Source of the DNA: an uncultured Thermoleophilia bacterium
GTDB taxonomy: Bacteria > Actinomycetota > Thermoleophilia > UBA2241
NCBI GenBank assembly: GCA_963699725.1
Contig: CAVOVA010000001.1
Span: 5,836-69,835 of the forward strand
Direction of reading: 5' to 3'
Length of the DNA: 64,000 bases
Made by a program: the position numbers and the translations under genes. The notes under the pieces were generated by a model, which saw nothing but the letters and a program-made list of their open reading frames with translations, was not told the DNA's origin and searched no databases. Positions 15,897 to 59,995 of the stretch are shown here, in pieces (position 1 is the stretch's first letter; each line of letters begins with the position of its first letter).

Positions 15897-15942
15897 CGCT
15901 GCTGCCTCCTCCTCATCGCGGGAGCGACCCTCCGCGCGGCGG

Positions 15943-16830: not shown

Positions 16831-16836
16831 GAGAGG

Positions 16837-19379: not shown

Positions 19380-19398
19380 GTCAGGCGTCCTCGCCGTC

Positions 19399-20376: not shown

Positions 20377-20386
20377 TCGTATCCCC

Positions 20387-23286: not shown

Positions 23287-23636
23287 GTCGAGACCTCCTC
23301 GCCGGGCAGCGGTGTCACGTCGACCTTGAGCCCCTTGAAGCAGGGCATGCCCGTGCCCAGCGTCTCCGTGCCGATGAGCTTGTTGGCCATGGTCCCCATG
23401 GGGACGAACACCAGGCCGGCCGGCACGGTGCCGGCGCGGGCCGTGAGCTCCGCCTCGCCGTCCGCCGTGCGCAGCAGCACCTGCCCGCCTTCGCTGACCT
23501 CGAGGCGGGTCATGTCGTCGGGGTTCATCTCCACGAGCGCGGTGGCTGCGAGATACTCGGCGGAAGCCTTGCCCTTGTGCATCCCGATGGCCTGCTTACG
23601 CGTACGCCCGGTGATCAAGGTGAGTGGGTCGCTCAC
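23283..23636 (-). CDS. fwdD: Formylmethanofuran dehydrogenase subunit D (molybdopterin-dinucleotide-binding beta-barrel)
   Basis: ORF 23283-23702. Start set at GTG 23636 (GGGAGGAG 4-5 nt upstream). LITGRT...MNPDDMTRLEVSEGGQV...FVPMG. Confidence 0.75.
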   Translation of the reverse strand: MSDPLTLITGRTRKQAIGMHKGKASAEYLAATALVEMNPDDMTRLEVSEGGQVLLRTADGEAELTARAGTVPAGLVFVPMGTMANKLIGTETLGTGMPCFKGLKVDVTPLPGEEVST

Positions 23637-24789
23637 GGCTCTCCTCCCTTCGCTCTTCGCTCTCTTCGTGCGCTTGCCCCGCGCGTGCGAGGAGGTCTGC
23701 AAGGCATTCCCGCCGGTCGCGGGACCGCGTCACGACGGTGCATATCGGGTGACCCTTGGCGATCGCCTGCCGGCTGCGCGGCACGTCTCTCACGCCGCGC
23801 GCCAGCCAGGCGTCGGTGTCGGGGGTCGTCACCTGGCGGCGTGCGTAGACGATCGCCTTGCCGAAGAACCCGGGAACGAGCGGCTGCACGACGTCCGCGT
23901 CCGGCAGCTGCCCGGCGCAGGCGTCCACGTGGGCGCTGAAGACGTTGGCGCCGCAGGCATCCTCCAGCAGCTCCATAGAGCCGCTGTAGCGGGGGTTGAC
24001 CTCGATCACGTGCGGGCGCACGATGCCTCTCTGATCCCTGCCGACAACAACATCCATGCCGTTGACGCCTCTCAGGCCAAAGTGCCGCGTGAGCGTGCGC
24101 GCCGCGTGGCGGATCTCCGCGATCACGGTGTCTGACTCCGCAGCGGAGAGGTCGACGGGGTGGATGTTGCCGCACCATCCGAACCCCGAGCTCCCCAGAG
24201 CGGCTAGCCCGATGAGCTGTTCGCTGAGACCGAGGATGCGGCAGTCACGGCCGTCGGCGACGAACGCCACCGACGCGGGCAGTCCATCCACCTCGGATTG
24301 TAGCACGTGGTCCGCGTCGAGCAGCGTCCCGTCCCAGTGTCGCACGCCGTGCCCGCCGCCGCTCCGCACGCGCTTGCGCAGCCAGCGGCCTGGCCCGGCT
24401 TCGGCCTCCTCGCCGGGCAGGAGTGTGACGGGATACGCGATGCCGGATCCTTCGCACACACGTCGCAGCAGCGCCCAGTCCCTGACCTCGAGCAGCACCT
24501 CCGGCGGGTTGCCGAGCACCTCGCACTCGCTCGCGAGTCCTGCCACGACCTCGGCGTGATTCTCGAGGTTGGCGCCGTACACCACGGCGTCCGCGGCGAC
24601 CCGCCGCGCGGCCTGTCCCAGCCCTTCGGCGTTCAACGCCAGCCCGAGGTCGCGTCCCAGAGCGTAGGTCTCGGCCAGGAGGACCTGGTCGCGGTCGGCG
24701 AAGAAGTCAACGGCGACCACGTCGTGGCCGCCGCGGATGGCGGCCGCCGTCATGGCGCGCGTGCTGACAGCGAGGACGAGGATGCGCAC
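23596..24789 (-). CDS. ATP-grasp protein of the H4MPT-associated carboligase-like family (orf17-type)
   Basis: Part of ORF 23596-25077, from GTG 24789 (VRILVLAVS). VIEVNPRYSGSMELLE ATP-grasp block. The 3' end overlaps the fwdD start by 41 nt. Confidence 0.65.
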   Translation of the reverse strand: MRILVLAVSTRAMTAAAIRGGHDVVAVDFFADRDQVLLAETYALGRDLGLALNAEGLGQAARRVAADAVVYGANLENHAEVVAGLASECEVLGNPPEVLLEVRDWALLRRVCEGSGIAYPVTLLPGEEAEAGPGRWLRKRVRSGGGHGVRHWDGTLLDADHVLQSEVDGLPASVAFVADGRDCRILGLSEQLIGLAALGSSGFGWCGNIHPVDLSAAESDTVIAEIRHAARTLTRHFGLRGVNGMDVVVGRDQRGIVRPHVIEVNPRYSGSMELLEDACGANVFSAHVDACAGQLPDADVVQPLVPGFFGKAIVYARRQVTTPDTDAWLARGVRDVPRSRQAIAKGHPICTVVTRSRDRRECLADLLARAGQAHEESEERREESRERPTHLDHRAYA

Positions 24790-25649
24790 TAGCCGGCCAG
24801 CTCCTTGGCGCTCTCCATGATGCCCTCGGCGTCGAGGACGAGGTCGTTGCGCTCGAAGAGGCGGGCGATGGAGCGCTTGTGCACCTTCATCTTGAGATCG
24901 CCGATCCCCAGCGCACCGAAGAGCAGCTTGTCGCCGATCTCCTTGCCGTTCCAGGTCGCCTTGGTGCCCTCGACGCCCAGTGGCGGCACCGCGTTGACGT
25001 CGGCGAGCACGCGGAGCGTCGGGTGCTCCTGCCACAGAGCCTCGGGTACGAGCTGGACACCCTCGACGCCCGTGCACACGACGGCGCAGGCGCCCTCGAG
25101 CGCGGTGGCGGTCGTGCTCTCGTCGGCGGCGACGGCCGGCATCACGTCGGCGCCGAAGCGATCCTTGACGACGGCGCAGGCCGCTTCAGCGCGTTCGATG
25201 GTGCGCGAGGTGAGGGTCACGTGGGCGCCCTCGGCCGCGAGGAGCCCGGCCGCTCGCTGTCCCACGGGGCCGGTCCCCGCCAGCACCACGACCTTCTGTC
25301 CGCTCACCGGCACCGACGAGATCACCTTGACGACGGCGGCCGCCGCGGTGGTGTTGCAGCCGTTGGAGTCGAGCATGACGGAGACGCGCAGCGGGTCGAA
25401 GAACGAGCCGACCGCCTCGCGAAGGATCGCCTCGCCCTTGGCAACGTCGATGCCGCCGATGAAGACGGCCGTGTTCTTGAGATCGGCGGGGCCGCGCGTG
25501 AACATGGCGCCGTAGACGAGGTCGCGCACCTCGCCGGGCTCGATGCCGCCGTACTGCAGGAGCGCGTCGATGCCGGCGTCGTAGGCCGTCACCGCGTCGA
25601 ACACGGCAGCGACGCGGTCGCTGTCGAACTGGATGAGGATCTTCTGCAT
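24789..25649 (-). CDS. NAD(P)-dependent methylene-tetrahydromethanopterin dehydrogenase (MtdA/MtdB family)
   Basis: 286 aa. KILIQFDSD...VFIGG...VVVLAGTGPVGQRAA Rossmann motif. AAGGAGG RBS. Confidence 0.85.
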   Translation of the reverse strand: MQKILIQFDSDRVAAVFDAVTAYDAGIDALLQYGGIEPGEVRDLVYGAMFTRGPADLKNTAVFIGGIDVAKGEAILREAVGSFFDPLRVSVMLDSNGCNTTAAAAVVKVISSVPVSGQKVVVLAGTGPVGQRAAGLLAAEGAHVTLTSRTIERAEAACAVVKDRFGADVMPAVAADESTTATALEGACAVVCTGVEGVQLVPEALWQEHPTLRVLADVNAVPPLGVEGTKATWNGKEIGDKLLFGALGIGDLKMKVHKRSIARLFERNDLVLDAEGIMESAKELAG

Positions 25650-25775: not shown

Positions 25776-26363
25776 ATGAGCCAGCTCCGACAACTCGCCC
25801 TCACGCCCGGCTGGATCTACGAGATCGTCGTGTGTACGTACGTTGAGGGCTCTCCTCACGCATCACCTGCCGGCGCGTGGACGCATGATCTGCGCTCTCT
25901 CTGTATGGAGCTGTACGACACGTCGCATACGCTGCCGGCCCTGCTCGAGGCCGGCGAGTTCGTCGTGGACCTGCCGGTGGACGCCGGGACGTTCTTCCGG
26001 GCGCTGCACGACCCGTCCGCGCTCCGCTTCGAGCGCGCCTCCGTGGTCTCCGCACCTTGCCTGGCCGACGCGAGCGCGACCATCGAGCTGACGGTCACCG
26101 ATGCCACGTCGCGTGAAGGAAGGACGCTCGTCACCGGCGCCGTCCGCCACGTCACGACCCGCGGGGAGGCGCGGCTCATCAATCGTGCCGAGGGATTGCT
26201 GGTCGAGAGCCTCATCGTGGCCTCGCGGTCCGGACTGCGCCCGCGGGAGGACACGCTCGCGCTGCTTGCCGAGAACGCCCGAGTCGTCGAGAAGGTGGCA
26301 CCCGGCTCGGACTTCGCCGAGGCGATGTCCCGCCTGAGGGACGCGTTAGCCTCGGGGTCATAG
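25776..26363 (+). CDS. DUF447-family (split-barrel flavin-binding-like) protein, H4MPT-cluster orf19-type
   Basis: 195 aa. WIYEIVVCTY N-terminus and INRAEGLLVESLIVASR. Family recalled from methylotroph archaeal-like clusters. Confidence 0.6.
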   Translation: MSQLRQLALTPGWIYEIVVCTYVEGSPHASPAGAWTHDLRSLCMELYDTSHTLPALLEAGEFVVDLPVDAGTFFRALHDPSALRFERASVVSAPCLADASATIELTVTDATSREGRTLVTGAVRHVTTRGEARLINRAEGLLVESLIVASRSGLRPREDTLALLAENARVVEKVAPGSDFAEAMSRLRDALASGS

Positions 26364-27326
26364 CGCGTCCTTGCGGATCTCCACCTTGGCGCGAGTGTTG
26401 CGCCCGCGGGCGATGGTCACGGAATCACCCAGGCCGTTGTCCCGCAGGTACTCGCGCATGTGCGACTCGAGCAAGGCGGCCTGGTCTTCGCGCGCGAGTC
26501 CGTAGACGGCCGGCCCCCACGAGCTCTGGCCGGCCCCGAACGCGCCCCCGCGCAGCATGGCGGCGGCGGTCTCGTTCGTGGCTTCGTGGGAGTAGGTCCC
26601 GCCCTGGACATCCGTGAAGTACGCGCCGGTCTTGCGGTCGATCGCGGTCAGGGCGCGCCCGAACGTCTCGATGTCGCGTTCTACCAGCGCCGGCATGAGC
26701 AGGAGCTGCGTGATGCGACACACCTCCTCCGAGATGTGCACGGACGGCGTCAGCGACGCGAACACGCCCTCCTCGCTGTTGCTGCTCAGGCCTTCGCCTC
26801 CGGCCGGGATGGCGATCACGAAGCACCAGTCCGCGGGGAAGTCATGCCGCCACACCACGGTGGGCACGGAGCAGCGCTCGCGAGCGGGCACGCCGCAGCC
26901 GGCGTCGATGAGGAGGCCGCCGCTGCGGAAGGCGGCGATGCCGATACCCGACCGCCGCCCCCGCTGCAGCGCGTACGCGATCTCGCGTACGTCGGCGTCG
27001 ATCCCGCAGACCGCGGCGAGACCGGCGCCGACTGCGAGTGCGAGCTGGGTGCCGGAGCCAAGCCCGACGTGTTCGGGGATGCGCTCCTTCACCTTGATCG
27101 CGACCCTCGGTTCCACGCCGTAGGCGTCGCAGAACCTGCTCACAGCCGCGCGCACCGGTTCCTTGTTGTCGCCGACGATCGTCAGTTCGTCTTGCTCCTC
27201 GAACACGACCGACGTGCCGGGCTGGTCGATCGCCACGCCGATGCTGCCGAAACAGCGGCCGATATCCTCGCTCAGGTTGGTGAACCCGAGGTGAAGCCGG
27301 GAGCCGGTCTCGACGGAGACCCTCAC
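26358..27326 (-). CDS. mptG: Beta-ribofuranosylaminobenzene 5'-phosphate synthase (GHMP family)
   Basis: 322 aa. SRLHLGF and IPEHVGLGSGTQLALAVG GHMP motif. GTGA overlap with the afpA stop. Confidence 0.85.
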   Translation of the reverse strand: MRVSVETGSRLHLGFTNLSEDIGRCFGSIGVAIDQPGTSVVFEEQDELTIVGDNKEPVRAAVSRFCDAYGVEPRVAIKVKERIPEHVGLGSGTQLALAVGAGLAAVCGIDADVREIAYALQRGRRSGIGIAAFRSGGLLIDAGCGVPARERCSVPTVVWRHDFPADWCFVIAIPAGGEGLSSNSEEGVFASLTPSVHISEEVCRITQLLLMPALVERDIETFGRALTAIDRKTGAYFTDVQGGTYSHEATNETAAAMLRGGAFGAGQSSWGPAVYGLAREDQAALLESHMREYLRDNGLGDSVTIARGRNTRAKVEIRKDAL

Positions 27327-27889
27327 GAGGCGGCGTCCCCCCGCTCCGCGCAGGCGCGCAGGATGCCCTCGATCTCAGACGGCGATTCGAACACGGTGAT
27401 GCCCTCCATCGTGCGCAGCTTGTCGGTGTTCTCCACGTCGATCGCGCGGATCTTGAGTTCGAGGCGTTCGCCGCCGGGACGCATGGTCACCGTCGTGCCC
27501 GGGCGAAGGTCGACCGGCATGATGTAGATCGGCGTCGTCGACTTGGCGGTCTGTCCGACGGCGTTGGTCACCATCGTGTCCTCGATGCCGTGCGCTATCT
27601 TGGCAACCGAGTTCGCGGTCGCCGGCGCCACGAGCAGGCAATCGTACTGACCGATCTGCAGGGGCCCGGTGATGAACGGCGAGTTGGCGTCCTTCTCGAT
27701 CTTCACCGACTTGGCGATCTCTTCGACCGTCTCGGTCAGCTTGTACCAGCGCAGCACCCGCACCGCGGCGATAGACATGGCCGCGGTGATCTCCACGTCG
27801 AGCTGTTCCCGGAGAGCCGCCATGGCTGCGACGGTCTCGGGCATCTTGTCGCCCGAACCGGTGATTCCCCACACGACCTTCAGAGTCAT
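27323..27889 (-). CDS. afpA: Archaeoflavoprotein AfpA / DmrA-like flavoprotein (HFCD fold)
   Basis: 188 aa. VVWGITGSGD N-terminus and LLVAPATANSVAKIAHGI. GAGGAGG RBS. Confidence 0.7.
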   Translation of the reverse strand: MTLKVVWGITGSGDKMPETVAAMAALREQLDVEITAAMSIAAVRVLRWYKLTETVEEIAKSVKIEKDANSPFITGPLQIGQYDCLLVAPATANSVAKIAHGIEDTMVTNAVGQTAKSTTPIYIMPVDLRPGTTVTMRPGGERLELKIRAIDVENTDKLRTMEGITVFESPSEIEGILRACAERGDAAS

Positions 27890-27902
27890 CGCCTCGACCT
27901 CC

Positions 27903-28523
27903 TCACTCGGGACGGCCTGCGAGAAGCCGCGTTACTTCTACCAGACGGTCGACAACCTTGTGGATGGCGTCCAGGCCCACCTCGTCTGCCTGCACGCCGG
28001 CCGCGCCCTTGTCACGCGACCAGACGGCGGCGCCGAGATTGGCGCCGAAGGCGCCGCCGCCCACGGGGATCATCTCGTTGATGAGGTAGAATCCCGCGAT
28101 CGTCAGCAGCGTCGGCTCCTGACCCCCGCTGCGGTCGCCACCGACGGCGATGCCTGTCCCCACCTTGCCGCGAAACACCCCTGGTTCGCTGGCGACAACG
28201 GCCCGGCAGCGGTCGAGGATCGTCTTGAGCTGGCCGCTGATCTGGCCCTGGTACACCGGCGTGCCGAGGATCCAGGCGTCGGCCCATTTGAGCTTCGAAT
28301 ACAGATCTTCCATGTCGTCCTTGAAGGCGCACCCCTGTCGCTTGCGGATGCAGGCGTCGCAGTGCACGCAGAACCCGATGGTCTTGCGATGGGCGCTGAA
28401 GTAGTCGACGCTCGCGCCGTGCTGCTCTTGAGCGTGCCGGAGCGCCTCGTTCACTGCGAAGTCGGTGGCCTTTCGGCGTGAGCTTCCCGAGATGCCGAGA
28501 AGTCTGATGCCGCTCTCGTTCAT
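27903..28523 (-). CDS. Iron-sulfur flavoprotein (Isf-like NADPH-dependent FMN reductase fold)
   Basis: Part of ORF 27903-28793, from ATG 28523. LLGISGSSR flavodoxin-like start. Compact CVHCDACIRKRQGC (CxxCxxCx6C) motif as in Methanosarcina Isf. Confidence 0.7.
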   Translation of the reverse strand: MNESGIRLLGISGSSRRKATDFAVNEALRHAQEQHGASVDYFSAHRKTIGFCVHCDACIRKRQGCAFKDDMEDLYSKLKWADAWILGTPVYQGQISGQLKTILDRCRAVVASEPGVFRGKVGTGIAVGGDRSGGQEPTLLTIAGFYLINEMIPVGGGAFGANLGAAVWSRDKGAAGVQADEVGLDAIHKVVDRLVEVTRLLAGRPE

Positions 28524-28668
28524 CGCTTCTCCGTACTTCCCGTTCGAGGACAGCGCCCAATGGACGACGAGGGCGGGGGTGCCGATACTCTTCAGCGAGC
28601 CCCCCCGCCCTCGGCCTTCTTCGTCATGGACCGGCAGGTCTGCCGCCGGTCCGGGACAAGAGGTCCTG

Positions 28669-29409
28669 TTACTCTGCGGCCTTGTTCTTGATCCCCGAGA
28701 TGTAGTCGTACAAGAAGGCGGCGATGAGACCGCCGGCGATCGGGCCGATGATGTAGATGGGGAAGTTGCCCCAATCGGCGATCGACGCTCCATCCGCGGC
28801 CTTGCCGCCGTACAGCGTCTCGACCAGGTAGGGACCGAAGGAGCGCGCCGTGTTCATCGAGGCGCCGGCGATCGGGCCGGTGACGATGATGTCCGCCGCG
28901 ACCACGATACCGATCGCGACGCCGGCGAAGCCGCTCGGCGCCCGGCTGTCCACGGCGGAGCCCCAGATGACGAGCACCAGGAAGGCGGTGGTCACGAGTT
29001 CGACGAGGATCGCCTGCCAGTAGCTCACGTCTGCGCCCGGCGCGGTGATGCCGAGACCCGCGTCGACCGCTCGCTGCCCCCAGATCCAGACGATCACGAG
29101 GGATGCCGCGGCGGCGCCGATCAGCTGCGCGATCACGTAGTAGATCATGTCCTTGGCCGGGAAGCGGCCGGTGGCCCACAGGGTGATGCTCACCACAGGA
29201 TTGATGTGCGTGCCCGAGATGTGCCCAAAGGCGTAGATCATGACCAGGACGGCGAAGCCGAAGGCGAGGCCGATCAGGAGCAGGCCGGCCATGTCGGGCC
29301 CCTCGAAGACCGTGACCATGGTCACGACGGAGCCGGTGCCCAGGAACACGAGCACGAAAGTACCGATCAACTCCGCGAGAGCCCGCTTCGCGAGGGTGGG
29401 TTGTGGCAC
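28669..29409 (-). CDS. MIP-family channel (aquaporin/glycerol-facilitator fold) with non-canonical NPA boxes
   Basis: 246 aa, six hydrophobic segments. First box HISGTHINPVVS (NPV), second box GASMNTARSFGP (NTA). GGAGGTGA RBS before GTG 29409. Confidence 0.85.
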   Translation of the reverse strand: MPQPTLAKRALAELIGTFVLVFLGTGSVVTMVTVFEGPDMAGLLLIGLAFGFAVLVMIYAFGHISGTHINPVVSITLWATGRFPAKDMIYYVIAQLIGAAAASLVIVWIWGQRAVDAGLGITAPGADVSYWQAILVELVTTAFLVLVIWGSAVDSRAPSGFAGVAIGIVVAADIIVTGPIAGASMNTARSFGPYLVETLYGGKAADGASIADWGNFPIYIIGPIAGGLIAAFLYDYISGIKNKAAE

Positions 29410-29531
29410 GGTGTCACCTCCAAAGACGTTTGTGACGAACGGAAGGTCCTGTCGGGGACCGGGAGACTGCGCTCCCGGTCCCCGATCGTCTCACGAGAAT
29501 CCTGAATCAGTTCCTCGCGGACCTCCTTCGG

Positions 29532-31064
29532 TCAGACGGCCACGTTCCACTGGCAGTAGCCCACTGAGCCGGAACCACGGCCCGTCGCCATCGGGACGTT
29601 CCTCTTGATGAGGGCGCAGGTAGCGCAGTCCTTGCAGGCACGGACCGGGGCGCCCGGCGTGCCGGGAGCGACCGCGATGGCATTGGTCATGAGGGTCGCG
29701 GTGGTGCACTCCGGCGTGAGGAAGCAGGGGAAGTCGGACAGCGTCATCAGGGCAGCGAAGCGCTGGGTGATGGCGCAGGCCGGATACGTGTAGCGCTGCG
29801 GGTTGCTGATCACGTCGTTGCTGTCGACGGTGCTCAGGTCGACCGCGACGCCCTTGACCTTGCCGCCGGCGCCGATCGGCTTGATGTCGAGGATGGCCTC
29901 GCCGCGCTTGAGGATGTCCATGAAGTCGACGTTGTGCAGCTCGTCGGCCTCGCCGCGGTCCGGATGCATGGCGGCGTAGTTGTGGAAGCGCTTGTTGAGC
30001 AGGTCGATCACCATCGGGACGGTGAAGCTGTCCTTCCACAGGATGTACGCCGTGGCGCAGGCCGTCGAGCCGGTGGCGACGGAGAGCACGTCGTACGGGC
30101 TCTTGAAGGCATCGGCCTTGAGGGCGGCGTTCAGCGTGTTCTCGAGCACGCCGGTGACGGCCTCGTAGATCGCGAACACCATGTCGTCGTTGAACATGTT
30201 GTAGGCCGACTGCGCGATGTGGTGGGCGACGTCGCCGACGCAGTACGCGGGGACGGCGGTGATGTTGGCGTAGTGCACGCCGGCCTTCATCGCGGCGACG
30301 ATGGTCGGGCGCATCTTCTCTTTGTAATCCGCCATGTACTTGCTGACGTCGAACGAGCTGTGCGGGCCGTGGCCACCGAGGTTATGCGTGGCCATGAGCT
30401 GCGCCTGAGCGGCGGACGGCTCGCGGTACACGAACTGCAGCATGTCGACCTCGGCCTGCTCGGCGTCGGCCAGGGTCTTGCCCGACTCGACGGCGGCGCG
30501 GAACGCGCCGGCGAGGCCGTAGGAGGTGTTCATGCCCCACGACTTGCAGGCGAGGATGGTCTTCTTGTGGTCGGCCGGGATGTCCAGGGGAACCAGGATC
30601 TGGTTCACGAGGTTCGGCACCGAGCCGACCGACATGGCGAAGTCGACGACACAGGTGGGGCCGTACATGCCGCCGTAGCGACGCGCGGCCTCCATGCCGA
30701 CGAGGGCCTTGTTCGCCGCGATGGCGTCGATGAACTTCCACATCGAAGCCTTGAACGCGGGATCCTCTTCGTACATGATCTCGAGGATCGGCGGCGTCTG
30801 ATAGTGCTCGACGAACGGATCGTCCTCGGGACGTACGGTGTCGGTGAGGGACGTCATGACGTCGAAGTGAGCGTTCACGGACTTCACGTGCAGGTCGATG
30901 ACTTCCTGCGACTGCCCCTCATAGGCCGTCATCTTGTTCACGGCGTCGACGTACGGCTTCGCGTCCGTCACCTTGAAGGTACCACCGCGGTTGGCCTTGT
31001 TGACGCCGAATACCGCTTTGGTGGCGCCCACTGCCTCGGTTATCATCTTCTCGTAAAGCGACAT
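29532..31064 (-). CDS. Hypothetical 510-aa Cys-rich protein, no family recognised
   Basis: Long ORF with GGAGG 5 nt before the ATG and composition like its neighbours. No Rossmann, P-loop, CxxCH, radical-SAM or DxHxxG motif seen. Seven Cys in the last ~85 aa (YPACAI, FPCFLTPEC, ACKDCATCA, GYCQW). Confidence 0.8.
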   Translation of the reverse strand: MSLYEKMITEAVGATKAVFGVNKANRGGTFKVTDAKPYVDAVNKMTAYEGQSQEVIDLHVKSVNAHFDVMTSLTDTVRPEDDPFVEHYQTPPILEIMYEEDPAFKASMWKFIDAIAANKALVGMEAARRYGGMYGPTCVVDFAMSVGSVPNLVNQILVPLDIPADHKKTILACKSWGMNTSYGLAGAFRAAVESGKTLADAEQAEVDMLQFVYREPSAAQAQLMATHNLGGHGPHSSFDVSKYMADYKEKMRPTIVAAMKAGVHYANITAVPAYCVGDVAHHIAQSAYNMFNDDMVFAIYEAVTGVLENTLNAALKADAFKSPYDVLSVATGSTACATAYILWKDSFTVPMVIDLLNKRFHNYAAMHPDRGEADELHNVDFMDILKRGEAILDIKPIGAGGKVKGVAVDLSTVDSNDVISNPQRYTYPACAITQRFAALMTLSDFPCFLTPECTTATLMTNAIAVAPGTPGAPVRACKDCATCALIKRNVPMATGRGSGSVGYCQWNVAV

Positions 31065-31180
31065 CTCTACCTCCGTGCCTCGATTGACCGGTTTCCGTTG
31101 GTGGTTGTGCCGGGATGGGCCACCGATCGACGGGCCTCCCGGTGGCCGGCGGGGCTGAGTACGCCCCCTTCAGACCGCGC

Positions 31181-31384
31181 CTACTCGAGCACCTCTTTGC
31201 ATTCCGCGCAGAGGATGCGCGGCAGCTTCTTCCGGGACTTCTTGTTCGGGAACGGGTAGCCGCCCTCCCAGAAGTCGACATCCTCACGGAGCGCGTGATC
31301 CATGCAGAGACCCATGCCGCACACGATACAGATGCCGACCGCCTCGGTCTGCTTGCCGGCCTTCGCGCACACATAACACTGCAT
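31181..31384 (-). CDS. DUF2180-like small zinc-ribbon protein
   Basis: 67 aa from ATG 31384 (GGAAGGAGGG RBS). MQCYVCAKAGKQTEAVGICIVCGMGLCMDH...CAEC, giving three CxxC pairs. Resembles archaeal DUF2180 proteins as I recall them. Confidence 0.6.
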   Translation of the reverse strand: MQCYVCAKAGKQTEAVGICIVCGMGLCMDHALREDVDFWEGGYPFPNKKSRKKLPRILCAECKEVLE

Positions 31385-31569
31385 ACCTGACCCTCCTTCC
31401 TGTTGGTGAGTGTCATCCATTTCTAACACTTCCGCGACGAGGACTTGCCGTTGTGCTTGTCGCCGTCGCCCGCGCGGTGACGGGACGTGCTGCCGCCTGC
31501 GAGCCACTTCATTCGAGTGACGCCTCACCTCCTTGTCGTTCTCCGCTCTGAGGCTGACTCCGAAAGCAA

Positions 31570-31611
31570 GACAGCCGGGCTGCCGAGAACGATCTCGGCA
31601 GCCCGGCTGTC
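31570..31611 (-). terminator. Perfect 19-bp hairpin (loop ACGA), followed on the minus strand by TTGCTTTCGG
   Basis: GACAGCCGGGCTGCCGAGA-ACGA-TCTCGGCAGCCCGGCTGTC. It separates the mod operon side from the DUF2180 promoter region. Confidence 0.5.
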
Positions 31612-31873
31612 GGGGCGCGGGGGTAAGAATACAGCCGGACTATCCCTTCCGCAGGGTAGCCACTCTACGGTGCAGCGGTACTCTACGAGGTGGGTAGGAC
31701 TAGTGTCAACGTACTCGTTCCAATGTACGGACCGTCGGCGACGTTACAGTACTCCGTCGGAGCGCATTCAGTCTGCGCTGAAGCGCTTCTCGACGCCGGC
31801 GCGGCGGCTGCTGCCGCCGGCGTGGAGCACGCCGACCCGAACCGGGTGGTCGCCAGGGATCGTCGCCGGCGCA

Positions 31874-32938
31874 TCAGGCGGGGTACGTGACGATCTCGGT
31901 CGCCTTCACCGAGGCGTACACGGGACCGCCCTCACCGAGGTGGAGCGCGGCCACGGCCGCCGGTGTGACCTCGGCGACGATCGGCATGGGCCCCGAGACG
32001 TGCACGCGGATACGCTCACCAGCTACGTCCAGTTCACCGGCCGTACCCGACCACACGTTGCGCCGCGAACCCTCGGGATGCGCGCGGTGAAGCGCCACCG
32101 CCCCCGGAGGGATGACGGCGAAGACGTCGCCCTCCCGTGGGACGGTCTCGGCCGTGACGATACGCTGGCCCGCGGGGAGCTCCACGACGTGCCCCGCACC
32201 CTGCCCCCGGTAGAGGTTGAGGCCGACGAGGTCGGCGACGTAGCGCGAGCGCGGGTGGGCGCTGAGCTCCTCAGGCGCGCCCACCTGGACCACGCGACCG
32301 TCTTCGAGAACGACCAGCAGGTCGGCCAGGGTCATCGCCTCGATCGGGTCGTGGGTGACGAGCAGGCAGGTGCCGCTGTACGAGCCGAGGTGCCGGTTGA
32401 GTTCCCGGCGGAGCTCCGCCCGCGCACCCGCGTCCATGGCCGACAGCGGCTCATCGAGGAGGAGCAGGCGTGGGTCCGTGGCCAGCGCGCGTGCCAGAGC
32501 GGCGCGCTGGGCCTGCCCTCCGGAGAGGGCCTTCGGCCGCTCCAGGGCGCAGGCTGCGAGGTCGACTCGTTCCAGCCACTCCGTCGCGACCCGGCGCGCG
32601 GTTCTCCGGTGCAGTCCGCGGGCACGCAGGCCGAAGGCCACGTTCTCGAGCACGTTGAGGTGGGGGAACAGCAGATAGTCCTGGAACACGACCCCGACCG
32701 GCCGGTGCTCCGGCGGGACGCGGACGCCGGCGGACACGTCTTCGAGCACTCGCCCATCGAGCACGACCTTTCCGGTTTCGAGGGGTATGAGGCCCGCCAG
32801 GGCGCGCAGGAGCGTCGTCTTGCCGGCGGCGTTCGGGCCCAGCAGGACGACGACCTGGTCGTCGGCGACCGCCAGCTCGGCCTCGAGATCGAGGGCTCCC
32901 TTGTGCAGAGCCACCTGTGCCTCGAGACTCATGCCCAT
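31874..32938 (-). CDS. modC: Molybdate/tungstate ABC transporter ATP-binding protein with C-terminal TOBE-like domain
   Basis: Walker A GPNAAGKTT, signature LSGGQAQR, Walker B LLLLDEP, and a ~120-aa C-terminal extension. Confidence 0.85.
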   Translation of the reverse strand: MGMSLEAQVALHKGALDLEAELAVADDQVVVLLGPNAAGKTTLLRALAGLIPLETGKVVLDGRVLEDVSAGVRVPPEHRPVGVVFQDYLLFPHLNVLENVAFGLRARGLHRRTARRVATEWLERVDLAACALERPKALSGGQAQRAALARALATDPRLLLLDEPLSAMDAGARAELRRELNRHLGSYSGTCLLVTHDPIEAMTLADLLVVLEDGRVVQVGAPEELSAHPRSRYVADLVGLNLYRGQGAGHVVELPAGQRIVTAETVPREGDVFAVIPPGAVALHRAHPEGSRRNVWSGTAGELDVAGERIRVHVSGPMPIVAEVTPAAVAALHLGEGGPVYASVKATEIVTYPA

Positions 32939-32969
32939 GCCCTCCCGCGCGCGTGTCCCTCGGGCGTCG

Positions 32970-33929
32970 TCATCGCGAAGGGAACCAGCGGTCGCGCAGC
33001 GCGATGAGCACGGCGAGGCAGATGACCAGCATGATCAGGCTCAGCGTGATCGCCGCATCGGGGTTGTTCTGCAGGGCGAGATAGACGGCCAGCGGGATCG
33101 TCTGCGTCCTCCCCGGCAGGTTGCCGGCGAAGGTGATGGTGGCGCCGAACTCGCCCAGCGCCCGCGCCCAGCACAGGGCGGCGCCGGCGCCGAGCGCCGG
33201 CGCGATCAGCGGCAGCGTGACCCGTCGGAAGGTCGTCCAGTGCCCGGCGCCCAGCGTCGCCGCCGCGTCCTCGTACCGCCGGTCCATGGAGCGGATGCCG
33301 GCCTCCACGGTGATCACCAGGAACGGCATGGCGACGAAGGTCTCGGCGAGGATCGCGGCGGTCGTGGTGAACGGCAGGGTCAGGCCGAACGCCCGGTCGA
33401 GCCACTGCCCGACGATGCCGCTCCGCCCGAAGGCGAGCAGCAGGGCCACGCCGCCGACCACCGGCGGAAGCACCATGGGGAGCGTCACCACGGCGCGCAC
33501 CACGTTGCGGCCACGGAAGGGCACGCGCGCGAGCAGCCACGCGAGGGGTACGCCGAGAACGACGGAGAGGGCGACGGCGCCGAAGGAGCAGACGAGGGAG
33601 AGCCGCAGGGCGGTGAGTACACCGGGCGCCGTGAGATCCTCCGGGAGATGGCGCCAGGGAACGCGGGCTACGAGCGCGACCACCGGCAGGGCGAGAAAGG
33701 CGATGCCGATCGCCGCCAGCGGCACGAAGCCGAACGGAGCGCGGCCACCCCGCCGAGCTTGTGCCGGCCGCCGTGAGGCTGCGGGGGCGGGCGGGACCGT
33801 CCAGGGGACCGGCGCCCGCCCGGCGCGCCCGGTGACGAGCGAGTCGCCGGCGACGACGGCGAGCTTGCCCGTGCCGTCCGGCCGGGGGCCGCCCGCGCCC
33901 TCCGGGCTCGTGCTCTCGTGGTCGCTCAC
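32970..33929 (-). CDS. modB: Molybdate ABC transporter permease
   Basis: ALGEFGATITFAGNLPGRTQT, the characteristic ModB loop. The N-terminal ~70 aa are low complexity, so the start is uncertain. Confidence 0.85.
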   Translation of the reverse strand: MSDHESTSPEGAGGPRPDGTGKLAVVAGDSLVTGRAGRAPVPWTVPPAPAASRRPAQARRGGRAPFGFVPLAAIGIAFLALPVVALVARVPWRHLPEDLTAPGVLTALRLSLVCSFGAVALSVVLGVPLAWLLARVPFRGRNVVRAVVTLPMVLPPVVGGVALLLAFGRSGIVGQWLDRAFGLTLPFTTTAAILAETFVAMPFLVITVEAGIRSMDRRYEDAAATLGAGHWTTFRRVTLPLIAPALGAGAALCWARALGEFGATITFAGNLPGRTQTIPLAVYLALQNNPDAAITLSLIMLVICLAVLIALRDRWFPSR

Positions 33930-33992
33930 GGCTTGTCTCTCATGCGTCGCCGATCGGGCTCGTGGCCGTCGGCCGCGCGGGCATCGTCGTTC

Positions 33993-34868
33993 TCATTCGC
34001 CCGGCGGCGGCAGGAAGCCGTAGTCGGTGAGCACCGCCCGGCCCTCGCGGGAGAGCACGAAGTCGACGAACTCGCGTGCCAGGGTCCGGTTGCCGCCTCC
34101 GGTGACCGTCGCGATGGGATAGGCGGCGACCACGTTCTCCGGTCGGGGGATCGCGACGGCGGCGATGTCGCCGCCGGCTGCCGTGACGTCGGTCACGTAC
34201 ACGAGGCCGGCGTCGGCCTCGCCGAGCGCGATCTTGGTGACCACGCCCTTGACCGAGACCTCCAGGGAGACCGGGCTCACGCTGACGCCGGCCCGGTCGA
34301 GGATCTCGCGACCGTACTTGCCGGCCGGCACCTCGGGAGCCGCGAGTACCACCTTGAGATCCGAGCGGCTCAGGTCCGACAGCTCGTCGATGCTCTCGGG
34401 ATTCCCCGGCGCCACGGCGATGGCGAGCTGGTTGCCGGCGAACGCTCTCGGATCGTCCACGAGGTCGCCGGCTTGGTCCATGTTCACGGTGTCGGCGGAC
34501 GCGAAGACGTCGGCCGGCGCGCCCTGCCGGATCTGGGCGACGAGGTCGTTGCTGCCCGCGAAGTTGAGCGCTACGTCGACTCCGGGATGAGCGGCGATGA
34601 ACGCGTCACCGAGCTGCGCGAAGGCCTCGGTGAGCGAGGCCGCGGCGAAGACGTTGACGGTCGCCGTCGAGTGCGCGTCTCCGGCGCCGGCCTCGCCGCC
34701 GCATGCGGACGCCGTGAGAAGCACGACGGCGAGCAGGGAGACCAGGATGCCTGCCGGGCGCCCGCGCGTGACGCCGCGGGATACGCGAGCGCTGCGGATC
34801 GCCGGGCGATCGGCGTCACGCGGCGCGGTCACGGCGGTGCGACCACGCCGAGCCGGACAGGCAGCCAC
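33993..34868 (-). CDS. modA: Molybdate-binding periplasmic lipoprotein
   Basis: Part of ORF 33993-35036. LLTASAC lipobox, FAGSNDLVAQI and GEADAGLVYVTD blocks. Start placed at GTG 34868 after AAAGGAG; ATG 34958 is an alternative. Confidence 0.8.
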   Translation of the reverse strand: MAACPARRGRTAVTAPRDADRPAIRSARVSRGVTRGRPAGILVSLLAVVLLTASACGGEAGAGDAHSTATVNVFAAASLTEAFAQLGDAFIAAHPGVDVALNFAGSNDLVAQIRQGAPADVFASADTVNMDQAGDLVDDPRAFAGNQLAIAVAPGNPESIDELSDLSRSDLKVVLAAPEVPAGKYGREILDRAGVSVSPVSLEVSVKGVVTKIALGEADAGLVYVTDVTAAGGDIAAVAIPRPENVVAAYPIATVTGGGNRTLAREFVDFVLSREGRAVLTDYGFLPPPGE

Positions 34869-34871
34869 GTC

Positions 34872-35015
34872 CTTCGCTCCTTTCCAAGCACGGGGAGGTC
34901 CGGGCGTTTCCGCCGCGGGCCCACGACAGCGGCGATCGCTGCCCCATGGTCTATCCATGGTACGGCCCGGCGCCCCTAGCGGATGCCGTAGGGCGGAGGG
35001 CTTGGAGTCGGACTG
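34872..35015 (-). promoter_or_regulatory. Candidate Moco (molybdenum cofactor) riboswitch in the modA leader
   Basis: The minus strand reads GACTCCAAGCC (compare the conserved CUCCGAGCC), then hairpins CGCCC..GGGGCG and CCATGG-ATAGA-CCATGG, then a GGCG-GAAA-CGCC tetraloop, then CCTCCCC..GGAAAGGAGCG holding the RBS. The consensus is recalled, not computed. Confidence 0.4.
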
Positions 35016-35102
35016 CGCGAAGCGTAGCACGGCCATCAGAACCGAGGCCAGTCCAATGCGGGCGGGCGGCGCGCGGACCGCGTTGCCCGCCGCCGGTCGG
35101 AT

Positions 35103-36368: not shown

Positions 36369-37490
36369 TCAGGGGCGCCGGCGACCCAGCCCGAGCGTCT
36401 CTACGAGGCAGGCGGCGACGCCGGCGGCGTCATCGAGCGCGAAGCGGCGACGGTGGGGAAGATCGGTGTCGGTCACGACCGCGAGCAGTTCCTCGGGCGA
36501 ATACTTCGTCTCCGCGTACCCCGCAGCGCCGCGCACGACCTCGATCACGTGCGTCGTCTCGTGCCGATAGCCTTCGCAGACGACGATGTCGTAGCCGGAG
36601 AAGTACCGCTCGGCGAGCTCGGCCAGGGTCGTGGTCTCCCGCTGCGTGGTCACGAAGGCGAACTGCGCCGGCGAACCCACCGCGTAGGCCTCCGCGCCGG
36701 CCTGACCGTGACGCCAGGAGTCCTTGCCGGGGGTGTCGATGTCGAAGTGGGCGACGCTCTTGATCGCCCCCACCGTGTAGCCGAGACCGACGAGCTCGGG
36801 GATCAAGCGCTCGATCAACGTCGTCTTGCCGCTGTTCGGCCGCCCGACGACGCCGATCACGACCGGCGGCCCGGGTTCGGCGGTCTCCACGGCGGCACGC
36901 TGGCGGCGGCGAGCCTCCTCCCAATCGTCCGGGGAGTTCACGTTGAAGAACGGCTCTGCGCGCGAGAAGGGCACGGTCCGCACGCGCACCTCAGGCAGCA
37001 GGTCCAGGAGGCTGTGCGCGCCCCGGTCGAGAAGGCTCTTCAGGTGCGGCGCGCAGGCTGGGCCGTACACGGCGTGCAGGGGCTCCAGGTGGTCGCCGAC
37101 GATCGGCAACGCCACATCCACGCCGTCGAAGGCCGCGACGACGCGCTCGACGGTCGCGCGCTCGGGGAACGCCACGTCGGCGGCGAGAGTGAAGATGGGT
37201 TCGTGGTAGCGGGCCAGGAGGGAAGCGAGCCCCGCAAGCGGCGAGCCCGTCACCACGTCGGTCACGGTCTCCACACCGGCGGGCAGTGACGCCGGGATCT
37301 GGGCGGCGTCACGCACCGAGAGCGCGACCGTCGGGAAGAGGTCGCCGAGAAAGACCAGATTGCGCTCCAGAAGTGTGGTCCCGGCGAGACGCAGCAGACG
37401 CTTGTCGCGCCCCATACGCCTTGCCTCGCCACCGGCGAGGAGGGCGCCGACGCGGATACGTCGCGGGGTTCTCGAGAGGTCGATGGTCAC
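36369..37490 (-). CDS. Fused MobA (molybdenum cofactor guanylyltransferase) - MobB (MGD biosynthesis adapter, P-loop)
   Basis: N-terminal LLAGGEARRMGRDK MobA motif. C-terminal half has VVGRPNSGKTTLIERL, the MobB P-loop. Single 373-aa ORF from GTG 37490. Confidence 0.8.
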   Translation of the reverse strand: MTIDLSRTPRRIRVGALLAGGEARRMGRDKRLLRLAGTTLLERNLVFLGDLFPTVALSVRDAAQIPASLPAGVETVTDVVTGSPLAGLASLLARYHEPIFTLAADVAFPERATVERVVAAFDGVDVALPIVGDHLEPLHAVYGPACAPHLKSLLDRGAHSLLDLLPEVRVRTVPFSRAEPFFNVNSPDDWEEARRRQRAAVETAEPGPPVVIGVVGRPNSGKTTLIERLIPELVGLGYTVGAIKSVAHFDIDTPGKDSWRHGQAGAEAYAVGSPAQFAFVTTQRETTTLAELAERYFSGYDIVVCEGYRHETTHVIEVVRGAAGYAETKYSPEELLAVVTDTDLPHRRRFALDDAAGVAACLVETLGLGRRRP

Positions 37491-41128: not shown

Positions 41129-41347
41129 AGAGAGCGGCCGGCGCCGGCCGCTGGAGCGGCGCCGGCCTTGCGTCGCCGCGGCCTTCCGGAGAGCCGACCC
41201 CCCGGCTGCAGCTGCTCCGGCGCCGCGGCGCACGTTCGGCGCGCGCATCGGCTCTTGCATCGTGGCCCGGCATGCGGCACACTGAGCGGCATTCTCAGCA
41301 TGCGATACCGAGATACCATTCCCTTCGGGCGAGAAAGGGAGACACTC

Positions 41348-44070: not shown

Positions 44071-44114
44071 TTGCCGTACGGTATGCGCATGAGATAATCT
44101 GATATGCGAATACC
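44071..44114 (+). promoter_or_regulatory. Candidate promoter (-35 TTGCCG, -10 TAATCT) overlapped by an 11-bp inverted repeat GGTATGCGCAT-N13-ATGCGAATACC
   Basis: AT-rich island in high-GC DNA, 50-90 nt upstream of the dehydrogenase start. One mismatch between the arms. Confidence 0.4.
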
Positions 44115-44163
44115 ATTGCGCCCGCCGAGCGGCAGGGCGGCGTCGAGTGCGAGGAGCTTCGGA

Positions 44164-45989: not shown

Positions 45990-46009
45990 CTGACCAGGAG
46001 GACGCACGC

Positions 46010-46780: not shown

Positions 46781-46802
46781 GGCAGGACGAGGAACGAGGC
46801 CC

Positions 46803-49656: not shown

Positions 49657-49667
49657 GAGGGAGTGAC

Positions 49668-58680: not shown

Positions 58681-58822
58681 CGCATGCGGGAGTCGAGGTG
58701 CCTCGCCCGTCAGGAGGACGCCGGGTGCGCCGTACGGCGCGTGCGTGTCGCGGGCCAGCGTGGTGCCGGCAACGGCTCGTTTCAGGGGAGAAGTGTCACC
58801 GGCCGCACGGAGGTGTGTACAG

Positions 58823-59995
58823 ATGAGCTCCAGATTGGACGGTCTCGAGTTCCTGTCGCCGACCAGGTTCGTCTTCGGGTTCGGTACCTGCGCGCGCCTT
58901 GCCGACGAGGTCAAGGCGCTCGGGGGCACCAAGCCGCTGGTCGTCACCAAGAGGTCCATGGTCGAGCGGGGCGACGTGGCGCCCGCGTTCCGGTCGCTCG
59001 AGGACGGCCGTGTCCCCTTCGCCATCTATGACGGTGTCCTGCCCGACGCTCCTATCGGTCTGGTGGACGAGGCGGTCGAGGTCTTGAGGGCGTCGGGCTG
59101 CGACATCGTCGTCGGCCTCGGCGGTGGCAGCGCGATGGACATCGCCAAGTGCGTGGCCGTCGCGGCGACCAACGACGTAGGTGTGCGCGGGATGCTGGGG
59201 CACGGCAGGGTACCACGCCGCGGCCTCCCCAAGATCGTCGTCTCGACCACGCACGTCGCCGGCGCCGACACCGGCTCGGCGGCGGTGCTGCAGATCGACG
59301 ACCAGACTCACGAGCACGGCGTCGTCGACAGTCGCCACCTCCTGGCCGACACGGTCATCAACGATCCGGAGCTGACGCTGACGATGTCCGCGGAGGCGAC
59401 CATCGACACATGCCTCGACACCCTCGTCACGGGCGTCGAATGTCTCACCGGGTCGCAGGCGAACCCCCTGTCCGACCTCTACAGCGAGAGCATCCTGCGG
59501 ATCTGCGCGACGTATCTGCCGGCGGTCGTGGACGACGGATCTGATCGCGAGGCACGTTACAACCTGGCGCTCGCGGCGAGCATGGGCGGCTGGGCCTACA
59601 TGAGCTCGTTCATCGGCGCCGTCCACGGCATCTCCTACGGCGTCGCCGCGGTCTGCGGGCTCACCCACGGACGCTCGATGGCTGCCATCCTCCCGTCCGT
59701 GATGCGCTACAACCTGCAGACGCGCCCGGCGCCGTTCGTCCGCATCGCCGAGATCCTCGGTATGCGCACAGACGGGATCGCGGACTTCAAGGCGGCCAGG
59801 CACTCGGTGGTAGCGGTCGAGGAGCTTCTCGATCGCGTGGCCGTGGCGCACAGGCTGCGCGACTACGGTCTCAGGCGCGACCAGATCGGAGCCGTCGCCG
59901 ACCTCTCGTGGGGCCAGATAGACGACTTCCTCGAGTCCAACGCACGCCCGTTCGGCCGGGAGGACGTCGAGACCATCCTCAACGATGCATACTGA
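58823..59995 (+). CDS. Iron-containing (group III) alcohol dehydrogenase
   Basis: Part of ORF 58745-59995, from ATG 58823. VVGLGGGSAMDIAK motif and the GAVHGISYG His-cluster region. Confidence 0.85.
   Translation: MSSRLDGLEFLSPTRFVFGFGTCARLADEVKALGGTKPLVVTKRSMVERGDVAPAFRSLEDGRVPFAIYDGVLPDAPIGLVDEAVEVLRASGCDIVVGLGGGSAMDIAKCVAVAATNDVGVRGMLGHGRVPRRGLPKIVVSTTHVAGADTGSAAVLQIDDQTHEHGVVDSRHLLADTVINDPELTLTMSAEATIDTCLDTLVTGVECLTGSQANPLSDLYSESILRICATYLPAVVDDGSDREARYNLALAASMGGWAYMSSFIGAVHGISYGVAAVCGLTHGRSMAAILPSVMRYNLQTRPAPFVRIAEILGMRTDGIADFKAARHSVVAVEELLDRVAVAHRLRDYGLRRDQIGAVADLSWGQIDDFLESNARPFGREDVETILNDAY

Follow-up and report, generated by a model that had tools for sequence, protein, structure and literature searches.

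Introduction

The only biochemical study of the DUF2193 protein family (PF09959) concerns the Methanococcus voltae member Mvol_0354, which carries one [4Fe-4S] cluster in each subunit and shows a cluster-dependent tetramer-monomer equilibrium (Dieter et al. 2025, PMC12375889). This protein is 13-fold more abundant on pyrite, and its C-terminal Cys motif resembles that of the sulfide-assimilation protein COG2122 (PMC12375889, PMC9431491). A gene for a MIP/aquaporin channel adjoins 91% of methanogen DUF2193 homologues; methanopterin, formaldehyde and the small protein DUF2180 are not mentioned (PMC12375889). Here we describe a bacterial DUF2193 gene located at 29532..31064 (minus strand) in 64,000 nucleotides of contig CAVOVA010000001.1 (assembly GCA_963699725.1, positions 5,836 to 69,835) from an uncultured Thermoleophilia bacterium; this whole stretch is called the window. 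[quoted passage not shown]

Bacterial H4MPT/methanofuran clusters encoding MtdB, Mch, Ftr/Fhc, FwdA-D homologues, Afp, ATP-grasp proteins and pterin biosynthesis have already been noted in Actinomycetes, Chloroflexi, Synergistetes and Deltaproteobacteria (Chistoserdova 2016, PMC5020050). The part of that paper available to us makes no mention of DUF2193, DUF2180, an AqpM channel or a leader RNA, which at the loci studied here form the conserved head of the cluster. The DUF2193 family, its MIP linkage and the presence of H4MPT genes in these phyla are thus known (PMC12375889, the available part of PMC5020050, PMC7438021, PMC6025917). In the literature searched we did not find DUF2193 heading an H4MPT island across phyla, its exceptional conservation, its contexts with Mer, MtrH or aldehyde:ferredoxin oxidoreductase (AOR), its lack of a known fold, the leader RNA, or the second protein, X593, whose gene follows the same leader.

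DUF2193 at the head of H4MPT/methanofuran islands

The C1 oxidation module linked to H4MPT and methanofuran is complete in the window, with MtdB, Mch, Ftr and FwdA/B/C/D encoded on one strand at 14090-25649. According to Pfam matches, the minus-strand genes downstream of the DUF2193 operon encode, in order of transcription, an MtdB-like protein (24789-25649), an ATP-grasp ligase (23596-24792), FwdD (23283-23702), an FwdB-like protein (22018-23286), FwdA (20387-22021), MptA (19399-20376), a pterin-binding protein (17964-19379), DUF1464 (16837-17979), Ftr (15943-16830), FwdC (15048-15896) and Mch (14090-15055). Searching with the window's own proteins, we surveyed the neighbourhoods of the best 80 bacterial loci out of at least 563 species genomes, and restricted the linkage count to those 63 bacterial species loci whose downstream flank reached at least 4 kb. 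H4MPT/methanofuran genes (MtdB, Mch, Ftr, FwdABCD) lie downstream of DUF2193 on the same strand in 61 of these 63 loci, and 59 have at least three of them. The two exceptions, L025 and L034, are both from Anaerolineae; here DUF2193 is followed by a short-chain dehydrogenase (SDR) and a tungsten-type AOR.

The carriers among the best 80 loci are all anaerobic bacteria, from Thermoleophilia, Anaerolineae, Chloroflexia, Syntrophobacteraceae, Desulfovibrionaceae (Solidesulfovibrio), Desulfocapsa, Synergistaceae/Acetomicrobium, Caldisericota and Spirochaetaceae, so that the linkage spans eight or more lineages. Synergistaceae, Caldisericota, many Anaerolineae and some Desulfovibrionaceae lack the genes for the MIP channel, DUF2180 and the flavoproteins Isf and AfpA, and there mtdB begins 70-200 nt after DUF2193. 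The downstream order varies, with Mch inserted in Chloroflexia and the ATP-grasp gene coming first in two loci, while DUF2193 stays at the head. Upstream of DUF2193 in two unclassified bacterial metagenome-assembled genomes (MAGs), L060 and L079 (6417-7789 (+)), we observed genes for a sodium:solute-symporter-like protein and a CdaR-like regulator, both called by eye from the N-terminal sequence and standing in the place of a MIP channel.

Of all the proteins in the island, DUF2193 is the best conserved. Its median identity between the window and counterparts in other phyla is 74%, compared with 60% for Ftr, 59% for both MtdB and FwdB, 57% for MptA, 53% for FwdA, 47% for Mch and 42% for the ATP-grasp ligase.

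The islands encode all steps from methylene-H4MPT to formate/CO2 as well as cofactor biosynthesis. Their downstream enzymes are those of methylotroph clusters, in which Fae supplies the substrate of MtdB; the DUF2193 islands are without fae. A tblastn search with the sequence of Fae from PDB 1Y5Y, covering the window and loci L001-L083 with up to 10 kb on either side of DUF2193, found no fae in the 64-kb window and none in any other locus except L029, where the order is DUF2193-mtdB-fae; this absence holds for the flanks searched and does not extend to whole genomes. Among the window proteins scanned there is likewise no corrinoid methyltransferase, B12-binding protein, or methanol or methylamine dehydrogenase. 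The initial annotation, which was made from the sequence alone, had already listed such C1-entry genes as absent, and this stands with one qualification, a gene for an iron-containing alcohol dehydrogenase at 58745..59995. Since the later steps are present and fae is missing, DUF2193 is the only conserved protein without an assigned function at the position where the MtdB substrate must be made.

The DUF2193 protein

The 510-aa open reading frame had been judged to be coding, and its features agree: it starts with ATG, has GGAGG 7 nt upstream, and its G+C content at third codon positions (0.93) is similar to that of its neighbours, in a window of ~68% G+C. The initial annotation could place the protein in no family. 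This was incorrect, as residues 2-490 align with positions 2-489 of the 498-position PF09959 profile, with a score of 746.4 bits against a gathering cutoff of 25 (E 1.7e-224). The Pfam scan identified no family besides DUF2193, and neither Pfam nor NCBIfam gave a match to the corrinoid-dependent methyltransferase families (MtaB, MttB/MtbB/MtmB, MtrH). The NCBIfam scan yielded no model for DUF2193 or DUF2180. No PADLOC model matched either protein, and a role in defence was dropped.

The exact sequence of the window protein is absent from the sequence records looked up, and public data contain more than 900 close homologues. Proteins with 65-99% identity occur in at least 563 species-level genomes, the 99% identical ones in Thermoleophilia MAGs. 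The family is compact: a HMMER search over 1.84 billion representatives gave ~15 full-length clusters at 50% identity and no remote superfamily.

As the initial annotation had noted, the C-terminal part is rich in cysteines, seven of which fall between residues 430 and 504 (YPAC, FPC, TPEC, CKDCATC, GYC). Four of them, C447, C477, C480 and C504, recur in at least 96% of 142 DUF2193 homologues and are the probable ligands of a [4Fe-4S] site. Compared with the archaeal motif, proteins of the bacterial clade contain extra Cys at 453 and 483 and an insertion of ~11 residues before the last Cys, which lies 23 residues past the CxxC. Due to this insertion, the published spacing CX2CX6DX2(H/C)X2C is not kept; the spacing here is CX2CX2CX20C, and the D/H positions are not confidently alignable. 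Beyond the cysteines, ~35 polar or charged residues distributed across the chain are at least 90-95% conserved in the 142 sequences, including H66, H264, H281, H282, H377, E205, D278 and D293. This is the kind of conservation usually seen in enzymes that have a large substrate or a second metal site, and not in a simple cluster carrier.

An AlphaFold2 model based on a 22-sequence alignment is all-alpha, with 25 helices (pLDDT 90.3, pTM 0.91) and a less certain C-terminal tail. Foldseek comparison of the model with the PDB gave a best E of 0.06 and TM values of at most 0.17, with only unrelated helical membrane proteins among the matches, and neither the single sequence nor a 22-sequence profile found anything below E 0.2 among PDB sequences. 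The empty structure search implies a fold without a solved relative. We rejected a transporter reading of the membrane-protein matches, as DUF2193 is described as soluble in the literature.

The window protein and Mvol_0354 belong to the same Pfam family and share the Cys-rich tail with C447, C477, C480 and the last Cys, the all-alpha architecture and the adjacency to an AqpM-type MIP gene. Differences are the bacterial host, the ~11-residue insertion, three extra Cys, and the location in an H4MPT/methanofuran island behind a riboswitch-like leader, neither feature being mentioned for the M. voltae protein (PMC12375889). The identity comparison covered other archaeal members linked to AqpM, which are 54-59% identical to the window protein. 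Judged from sequence and model, DUF2193 here is a bacterial orthologue of the methanogen protein, soluble and with a fold of its own.

DUF2180, the channel and the flavoproteins

The gene preceding DUF2193 encodes a 67-aa, zinc-ribbon-like protein with three CxxC pairs (31181..31384, minus strand), and its earlier naming as DUF2180 is borne out by PF09947 (124.1 bits against a cutoff of 22.2, positions 1-66 of 68, E 2.5e-36). Its start was set at the ATG that follows GGAGG, both kept in 22 loci, and a longer open reading frame beginning with GTG was rejected. A text search found no literature on DUF2180.

The co-directional series downstream that had been read as an atypical MIP channel, Isf-like, AfpA-like and beta-RFAP synthase genes is supported by family matches throughout. 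The MIP gene (28669..29409, minus strand; PF00230, E 4.7e-50) begins 122 nt downstream of DUF2193. Its product passes TIGR00861 (172.2 bits against a cutoff of 171.25), and its best PDB relatives are the AqpM structures 2EVU (E 1e-54) and 3NE2 (E 3e-53). Judging by these matches the channel is an AqpM orthologue; it has the length and helices of AqpM from Methanothermobacter marburgensis and Archaeoglobus fulgidus (2EVU/2F2B, 3NE2) and differs in being bacterial, in lying inside a C1 operon and in its boxes, where NPA/NPA is replaced by NPV and NTA (HINPVV, SMNTAR), so that its description as atypical was apt. MIP genes adjoin DUF2193 in Thermoleophilia, Syntrophobacteraceae and some Desulfovibrionaceae, and not in Synergistaceae or Caldisericota. 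DUF2180 and the MIP gene co-occur in both bacterial and archaeal DUF2193 loci; the AqpM-type channel and DUF2180 accompany DUF2193 in Thermoleophilia, Syntrophobacteraceae, Desulfocapsa and methanogens.

Next follow, on the same strand, an Isf-like iron-sulfur flavoprotein of the FMN_red type (27903..28523; PF03358, E 5e-30), an AfpA-type archaeoflavoprotein (27323..27889; TIGR02699, 216 bits against a cutoff of 192) and beta-RFAP synthase, the first step of H4MPT biosynthesis (26358..27326; TIGR00144, 166 bits against a cutoff of 113.5). The true start of the Isf-like protein is an internal ATG giving 206 aa, and gene calling at the corresponding position of L001 gives a 203-aa orthologue. 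AfpA is also matched by TIGR02700, the model for dihydromethanopterin reductase, and is probably that enzyme of the island. Isf and AfpA always occur together and are linked to RFAP synthase or MptA, and they are missing from many DUF2193-MtdB loci; they therefore probably serve reduction or biosynthesis of the H4MPT cofactor rather than the DUF2193 reaction.

Archaeal gene contexts

In archaea, DUF2193 is carried by Methanospirillum, Methanobacteriaceae, Methanosarcinales, Geoglobus, Archaeoglobus and a Thermoprotei MAG. Methanogens and Archaeoglobales use H4MPT, and every named DUF2193 carrier that can be placed, leaving out the Thermoprotei match P0293, belongs to a lineage that uses H4MPT or carries its genes. 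Methanospirillum has the order DUF2193-DUF2180-AqpM followed by a homologue of 5-formyl-THF cyclo-ligase, and Methanobacteriaceae and one unplaced contig have DUF2193-MIP. In Geoglobus ahangari and Archaeoglobus sulfaticallidus, the gene for an MtrH homologue overlaps the start of DUF2193. One metagenomic archaeon shows the order mtrEDCBAFGH-mer-AOR-DUF2193, another has a corrinoid methyltransferase cluster that contains AOR-DUF2193-Mer, and in one further contig (L083) DUF2193 overlaps a gene for an iron-containing alcohol dehydrogenase (Fe-ADH). In the two AOR-bearing contigs, L089:1-7512 and L088:1-8508, the start of DUF2193 is directly adjacent to the AOR gene or overlapped by it, beside Mer, in one case directly after a complete mtrEDCBAFGH. 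The AOR-DUF2193-Mer contexts may represent a formaldehyde/formate side branch at methylene-H4MPT.

The bacterial and the AqpM-linked archaeal proteins form one subfamily, and the proteins linked to MtrH or to AOR/Mer form a second, with 33-41% identity to the window protein. Archaeoglobus sulfaticallidus has one of each kind. Its two paralogues lie 4 kb apart (L087:453-1952(-) and L087:6001-7449(+)), one in a DUF2193-DUF2180-MIP operon and belonging to the window subfamily, the other overlapping the MtrH homologue, which suggests two related but distinct functions. The neighbours of DUF2193 thus fall into two groups, enzymes of H4MPT-bound C1 units (MtdB, Mer, MtrH) and proteins handling aldehydes, alcohols or neutral solutes (AOR, SDR, Fe-ADH, AqpM). 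As far as gene order can tell, H4MPT-bound C1 units and aldehydes are the common theme of the archaeal contexts.

The leader RNA and its regulon

The element described in the initial annotation extended over 29532-31384 and so omitted a conserved promoter and leader RNA at 31570..31709, which precede the DUF2180/DUF2193 operon on the minus strand. A promoter scan and alignment identified the Sigma-70-type promoter TTGACA-18 nt-TAGAGT at 31680..31709, the only promoter-like site in 26000-32000 (10 of 12 matches); TTGACA and the -10 box are kept in the alignment of Thermoleophilia upstream regions. The leader RNA, a candidate riboswitch aptamer, follows at 31589..31663 (covariance model R1, 71 bits, E 2.5e-14), and a terminator scan located an intrinsic terminator hairpin of 19 bp with a U-rich tail at 31570..31611, the likely expression platform. 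We rejected the idea that this hairpin is merely the terminator of modC, because it lies downstream of the conserved promoter and is kept together with the aptamer in loci without mod genes.

In Thermoleophilia, the invariant element reads GGCUACCC-hairpin-GGGA...GCUGU...(pseudoknot partner)...ACAGCCGRGCUGCC. The same element lies upstream of DUF2193 in Anaerolineae, Chloroflexia and Deltaproteobacteria, and it is sometimes repeated in tandem (L010, L013, L014, L015, L029, L038, L044, L098, L134, L181, L196). The derived structure consists of helix P1 (GGCU/RGCY), a CCC/GGG hairpin whose loop pairs downstream to form a pseudoknot, helix P3 (GCUGU/ACAGC) and a GC/GC contact. Among 32 seed sequences, 94% of cells are paired, compared with 25-50% in slid controls. 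Model R1, built without the pseudoknot, was searched against 82 genome sources (the window and 81 loci) and found the element in 46 of them; all matches are on the DUF2193 strand, 0.2-0.8 kb upstream, except three that are second copies in L001, L051 and L058. In metagenomes, 34 matches at E ≤1e-4 occur in 30 of 120 loci (L090-L209); only these were kept, as a loose regular-expression scan gave many chance matches inside genes. In 58 matches outside the seed, the fraction of paired cells is 92.9% (29-43% in slid controls), and compensatory changes occur at 11 of the 21 pairs, among them five of the six pairs of the pseudoknot that the search model does not contain. None of 500 shuffles paired as well.

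The minimum-free-energy fold of the window leader is the terminator (-67 kcal/mol, z -6.9), which itself covaries across loci, with 87% of cells paired and compensatory changes at 6 pairs. Its sequence-invariant 5' arm (31611-31593) contains the 3' strands of P1 and P3. Because of this overlap, a ligand-stabilised aptamer should prevent termination, that is, act as an ON switch. A pseudoknotted aptamer overlapping the 5' arm of a terminator, with tandem copies in some genomes, is likewise found in the ZTP, fluoride and guanidine ON riboswitches. Unlike those classes, the present leader matches no Rfam 15 family at gathering score, and even at E ≤10 only hairpin-level matches to the terminator appeared; its status as a riboswitch is a prediction. 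We consider it an uncatalogued candidate for an ON riboswitch. The leader could possibly be bound by a protein instead of a small molecule. Our literature search did not find a riboswitch linked to methanopterin genes. The element was absent from Synergistaceae, Caldisericota, Desulfovibrionaceae and archaea, and in the phyla without it a conserved protein regulator upstream of DUF2193 was looked for and not found.

Apart from DUF2180/DUF2193 operons, two of them in AOR contexts, the leader precedes the gene of a 593-aa protein, X593 (L095:2743-4521(-), L051:9408-11186, L058:10972-12750, L130:5741-7519(-), L018:3103-4878, L021:3012-4787, L031:3643-5418 and L040:11131-12903). A gene for a LarC2-type nickel-pincer cofactor insertase always comes after X593, and mtdB often comes next. 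It is 68-94% conserved in the loci and in the best 120 clusters of 683 matches. X593 was matched by no family in Pfam or NCBIfam and by no PDB entry, hhalign detected no similarity to DUF2193, and its model, which is mediocre (pLDDT 69), had no fold match. The possibility that X593 displaces DUF2193 was rejected, since several genomes have both genes, each with its own leader copy, and X593 is better described as a second orphan of the same regulon than as a substitute. X593 is absent from the window. The leader upstream of DUF2193 even in AOR loci, and upstream of X593-mtdB, indicates one putative ligand-controlled C1 regulon. In the closely related GCA_936415865 (L001:5668-7453), X593 is spread over three frames called as hypothetical proteins of 80, 289 and 159 aa, which may be a pseudogene or an assembly frameshift.

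Possible functions of DUF2193

The initial annotation had offered the 510-aa protein as a candidate for an undescribed C1-activating or C1-generating system, and had stated that a match to an enzyme family unrelated to C1 metabolism, or homologues without conserved linkage to DUF2180, MIP or H4MPT genes, would speak against this. Sequence, profile and fold searches gave no match to a known enzyme family, and the linkage is conserved, in bacteria as counted above and with MtrH, Mer and AOR in other archaea. The idea of a head of the C1 module is therefore well supported by comparative genomics. What holds of the earlier proposal is an uncharacterised protein in this position; the family itself was already in Pfam as DUF2193, and "C1-activating" goes beyond the observations.

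We propose, with a probability of roughly 45%, that DUF2193 is an enzyme linked to H4MPT and acts at the level of methylene-H4MPT on a small C1 compound without charge, for which formaldehyde is the most likely candidate. The compound (formaldehyde being present as methanediol in water) would be admitted by the AqpM-type channel, and DUF2193 would connect it to the pterin cofactor, giving the methylene-H4MPT that MtdB, the next enzyme, uses; in archaea, DUF2193 would act between Mer and AOR. The step would correspond to that of Fae in aerobic methylotrophs. Transcription would start at the conserved promoter and proceed into the pseudoknotted leader, whose alternative fold would be the terminator, and expression would probably be ON when a ligand stabilises the aptamer. 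Formaldehyde is the best candidate because MtdB and Mer use methylene-H4MPT, AOR uses aldehydes, fae is missing and the channel fits a small diol; AqpM orthology together with the 91% adjacency in methanogens fits a small neutral solute (PMC12375889). We infer the Fe-S cluster of the window protein, its substrate and reaction, and the ligand of the leader from these comparisons. The proposed equivalence to Fae (1Y5Y) is one of pathway position, namely methylene-H4MPT supply to MtdB. Fae is a cofactor-free protein of ~170 aa and DUF2193 one of 510 aa with a putative Fe-S site; as the two have no sequence or fold homology, DUF2193 is not classed as Fae and only a Fae-like role is suggested.

Several points weigh against an enzyme for formaldehyde at this level. 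Formaldehyde condenses with H4MPT without the need for a redox cofactor, and does so spontaneously as well, so that a 510-aa Fe-S protein seems oversized for it. The adjacency to MtrH in Archaeoglobales points to the methyl and not the methylene level. DUF2193 does not simply take the place of Fae in all carriers, given that L029 has DUF2193, mtdB and fae together, and presumably many DUF2193-carrying methanogens have Fae as well. Linkage within a mobile island can in part reflect co-transfer rather than a shared reaction, and the absence of fae applies to flanks of up to 10 kb. Finally, the authors of the M. voltae study propose an Fe-S carrier or a regulatory role (PMC12375889). A more far-reaching version, in which a new-fold Fe-S enzyme forms the C1 entry or exit of the H4MPT pathway of anaerobes, fed by AqpM and controlled by a new riboswitch that senses C1 or methanopterin, with X593 and the LarC2 insertase in the same regulon and with DUF2193 as a non-homologous counterpart of Fae or as a formaldehyde- or methanol-activating enzyme, is possible but, taken jointly, doubtful.

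Alternatively, DUF2193 might make, reduce or repair H4MPT or methanofuran, for instance in an unassigned redox step of methanopterin biosynthesis with Isf/AfpA as electron donors. The genes for Isf, AfpA and RFAP synthase follow DUF2193 in Thermoleophilia and Syntrophobacteraceae, those for MptA, the pterin-binding protein and ATP-grasp ligases lie near it in other loci, the 5-formyl-THF cyclo-ligase homologue adjoins it in Methanospirillum, and an Fe-S cluster would suit a reductive step. The archaeal contexts (Mtr-Mer-AOR, MtrH, AqpM), however, are without biosynthesis genes, the linkage to the channel would be left unexplained, and the family was not seen among aerobic H4MPT users, the best 80 loci and the named matches all being from anaerobes or archaea. 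Moreover, the M. maripaludis homologue is reported to be non-essential, whereas H4MPT is indispensable there (PMC12375889). A cofactor role is unlikely on this evidence. We also think it quite unlikely that DUF2193 is an Fe-S-dependent methanol or diol dehydrogenase or dehydratase that passes an aldehyde to H4MPT enzymes, AOR, SDR or Fe-ADH without using H4MPT as a substrate. Such an activity would agree with the AOR neighbours in L025, L034, L088, L089 and L112, the SDR in L025 and the Fe-ADH in L083, and with L029, in which it would act upstream of Fae. Glycerol-facilitator-type MIP channels accompany diol dehydratase operons, and a methanol-to-formaldehyde step, for which DUF2193 would then be a candidate, has been postulated in the Mtr/Mer bypass of Methanosarcina. 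But the tightest and most frequent neighbour is MtdB and not an aldehyde enzyme, hydrogenotrophic methanogens with the DUF2193-AqpM pair do not use methanol, and the searches detected no dehydratase or dehydrogenase motif or fold.

Least probable in our estimate, indeed improbable, is a protein without enzymatic activity, either an Fe-S cluster carrier or a redox- or Fe-S-sensing regulator as proposed for the M. voltae protein. The [4Fe-4S] cluster, cluster-dependent oligomerisation, abundance on pyrite and COG2122-like motif of Mvol_0354 are in its favour (PMC12375889, PMC9431491), as is the conservation of the Cys observed here. For a carrier or sensor, 74% identity across phyla and dozens of invariant polar residues beyond the Cys tail would be unexpected, and the linkage to MtdB, Mer, MtrH and AOR would have no explanation. 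The Pfam scan found no DNA-binding domain, and the operon already has an RNA-based control element.

As the most conserved and first-transcribed gene of the island, the orphan DUF2193 is a testable candidate for the missing C1 entry step of anaerobes. An H4MPT-linked function would give a metabolic context to the M. voltae work and offer AqpM, a channel with an unsettled natural solute, a physiological role; the leader ligand, once identified, would reveal the signal that controls the C1 module. Experiments are feasible in cultivable carriers such as Solidesulfovibrio magneticus, Acetomicrobium and the genetically tractable Methanococcus maripaludis.

Other features of the window

Upstream of the C1 operon lie modABC (31874-35036), a transaldolase gene and MobA/B (36369-37490). 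At 34877-35007 on the minus strand, modABC is preceded by a riboswitch for the Moco/tungsten cofactor (RF01055; 44 bits, gathering score 36). With these elements adjoining the C1 operon, the genes for molybdenum/tungsten supply lie in one cluster with those for Fwd and AOR. The opposite strand carries, between RFAP synthase and mtdB, a gene for DUF447, a flavin-reductase-like protein (25776-26363 (+)), which is kept at the same place in 18 Thermoleophilia loci; a minus-strand open reading frame at 25856-26254 has no family match. The iron-containing alcohol dehydrogenase mentioned above (Fe-ADH + ADH_Fe_C, 416 aa; plus strand) is 27 kb away from DUF2193. The window also encodes two molybdoenzymes resembling pyrogallol-phloroglucinol transhydroxylase, each with a 4Fe-4S/CarboxypepD_reg subunit, together with an AOR-family enzyme, IclR regulators, a beta-keto acid cleavage enzyme, thiolases, a 3-hydroxyacyl-CoA dehydrogenase and two cyclases. 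This gene set, distributed over 3369-6868 (-), 37695-41128 (+), 41168-43060 (+) and 44104-52556 (+), looks like a pathway for anaerobic degradation of trihydroxybenzenes, of the gallate/phloroglucinol type, that flanks the C1 island.

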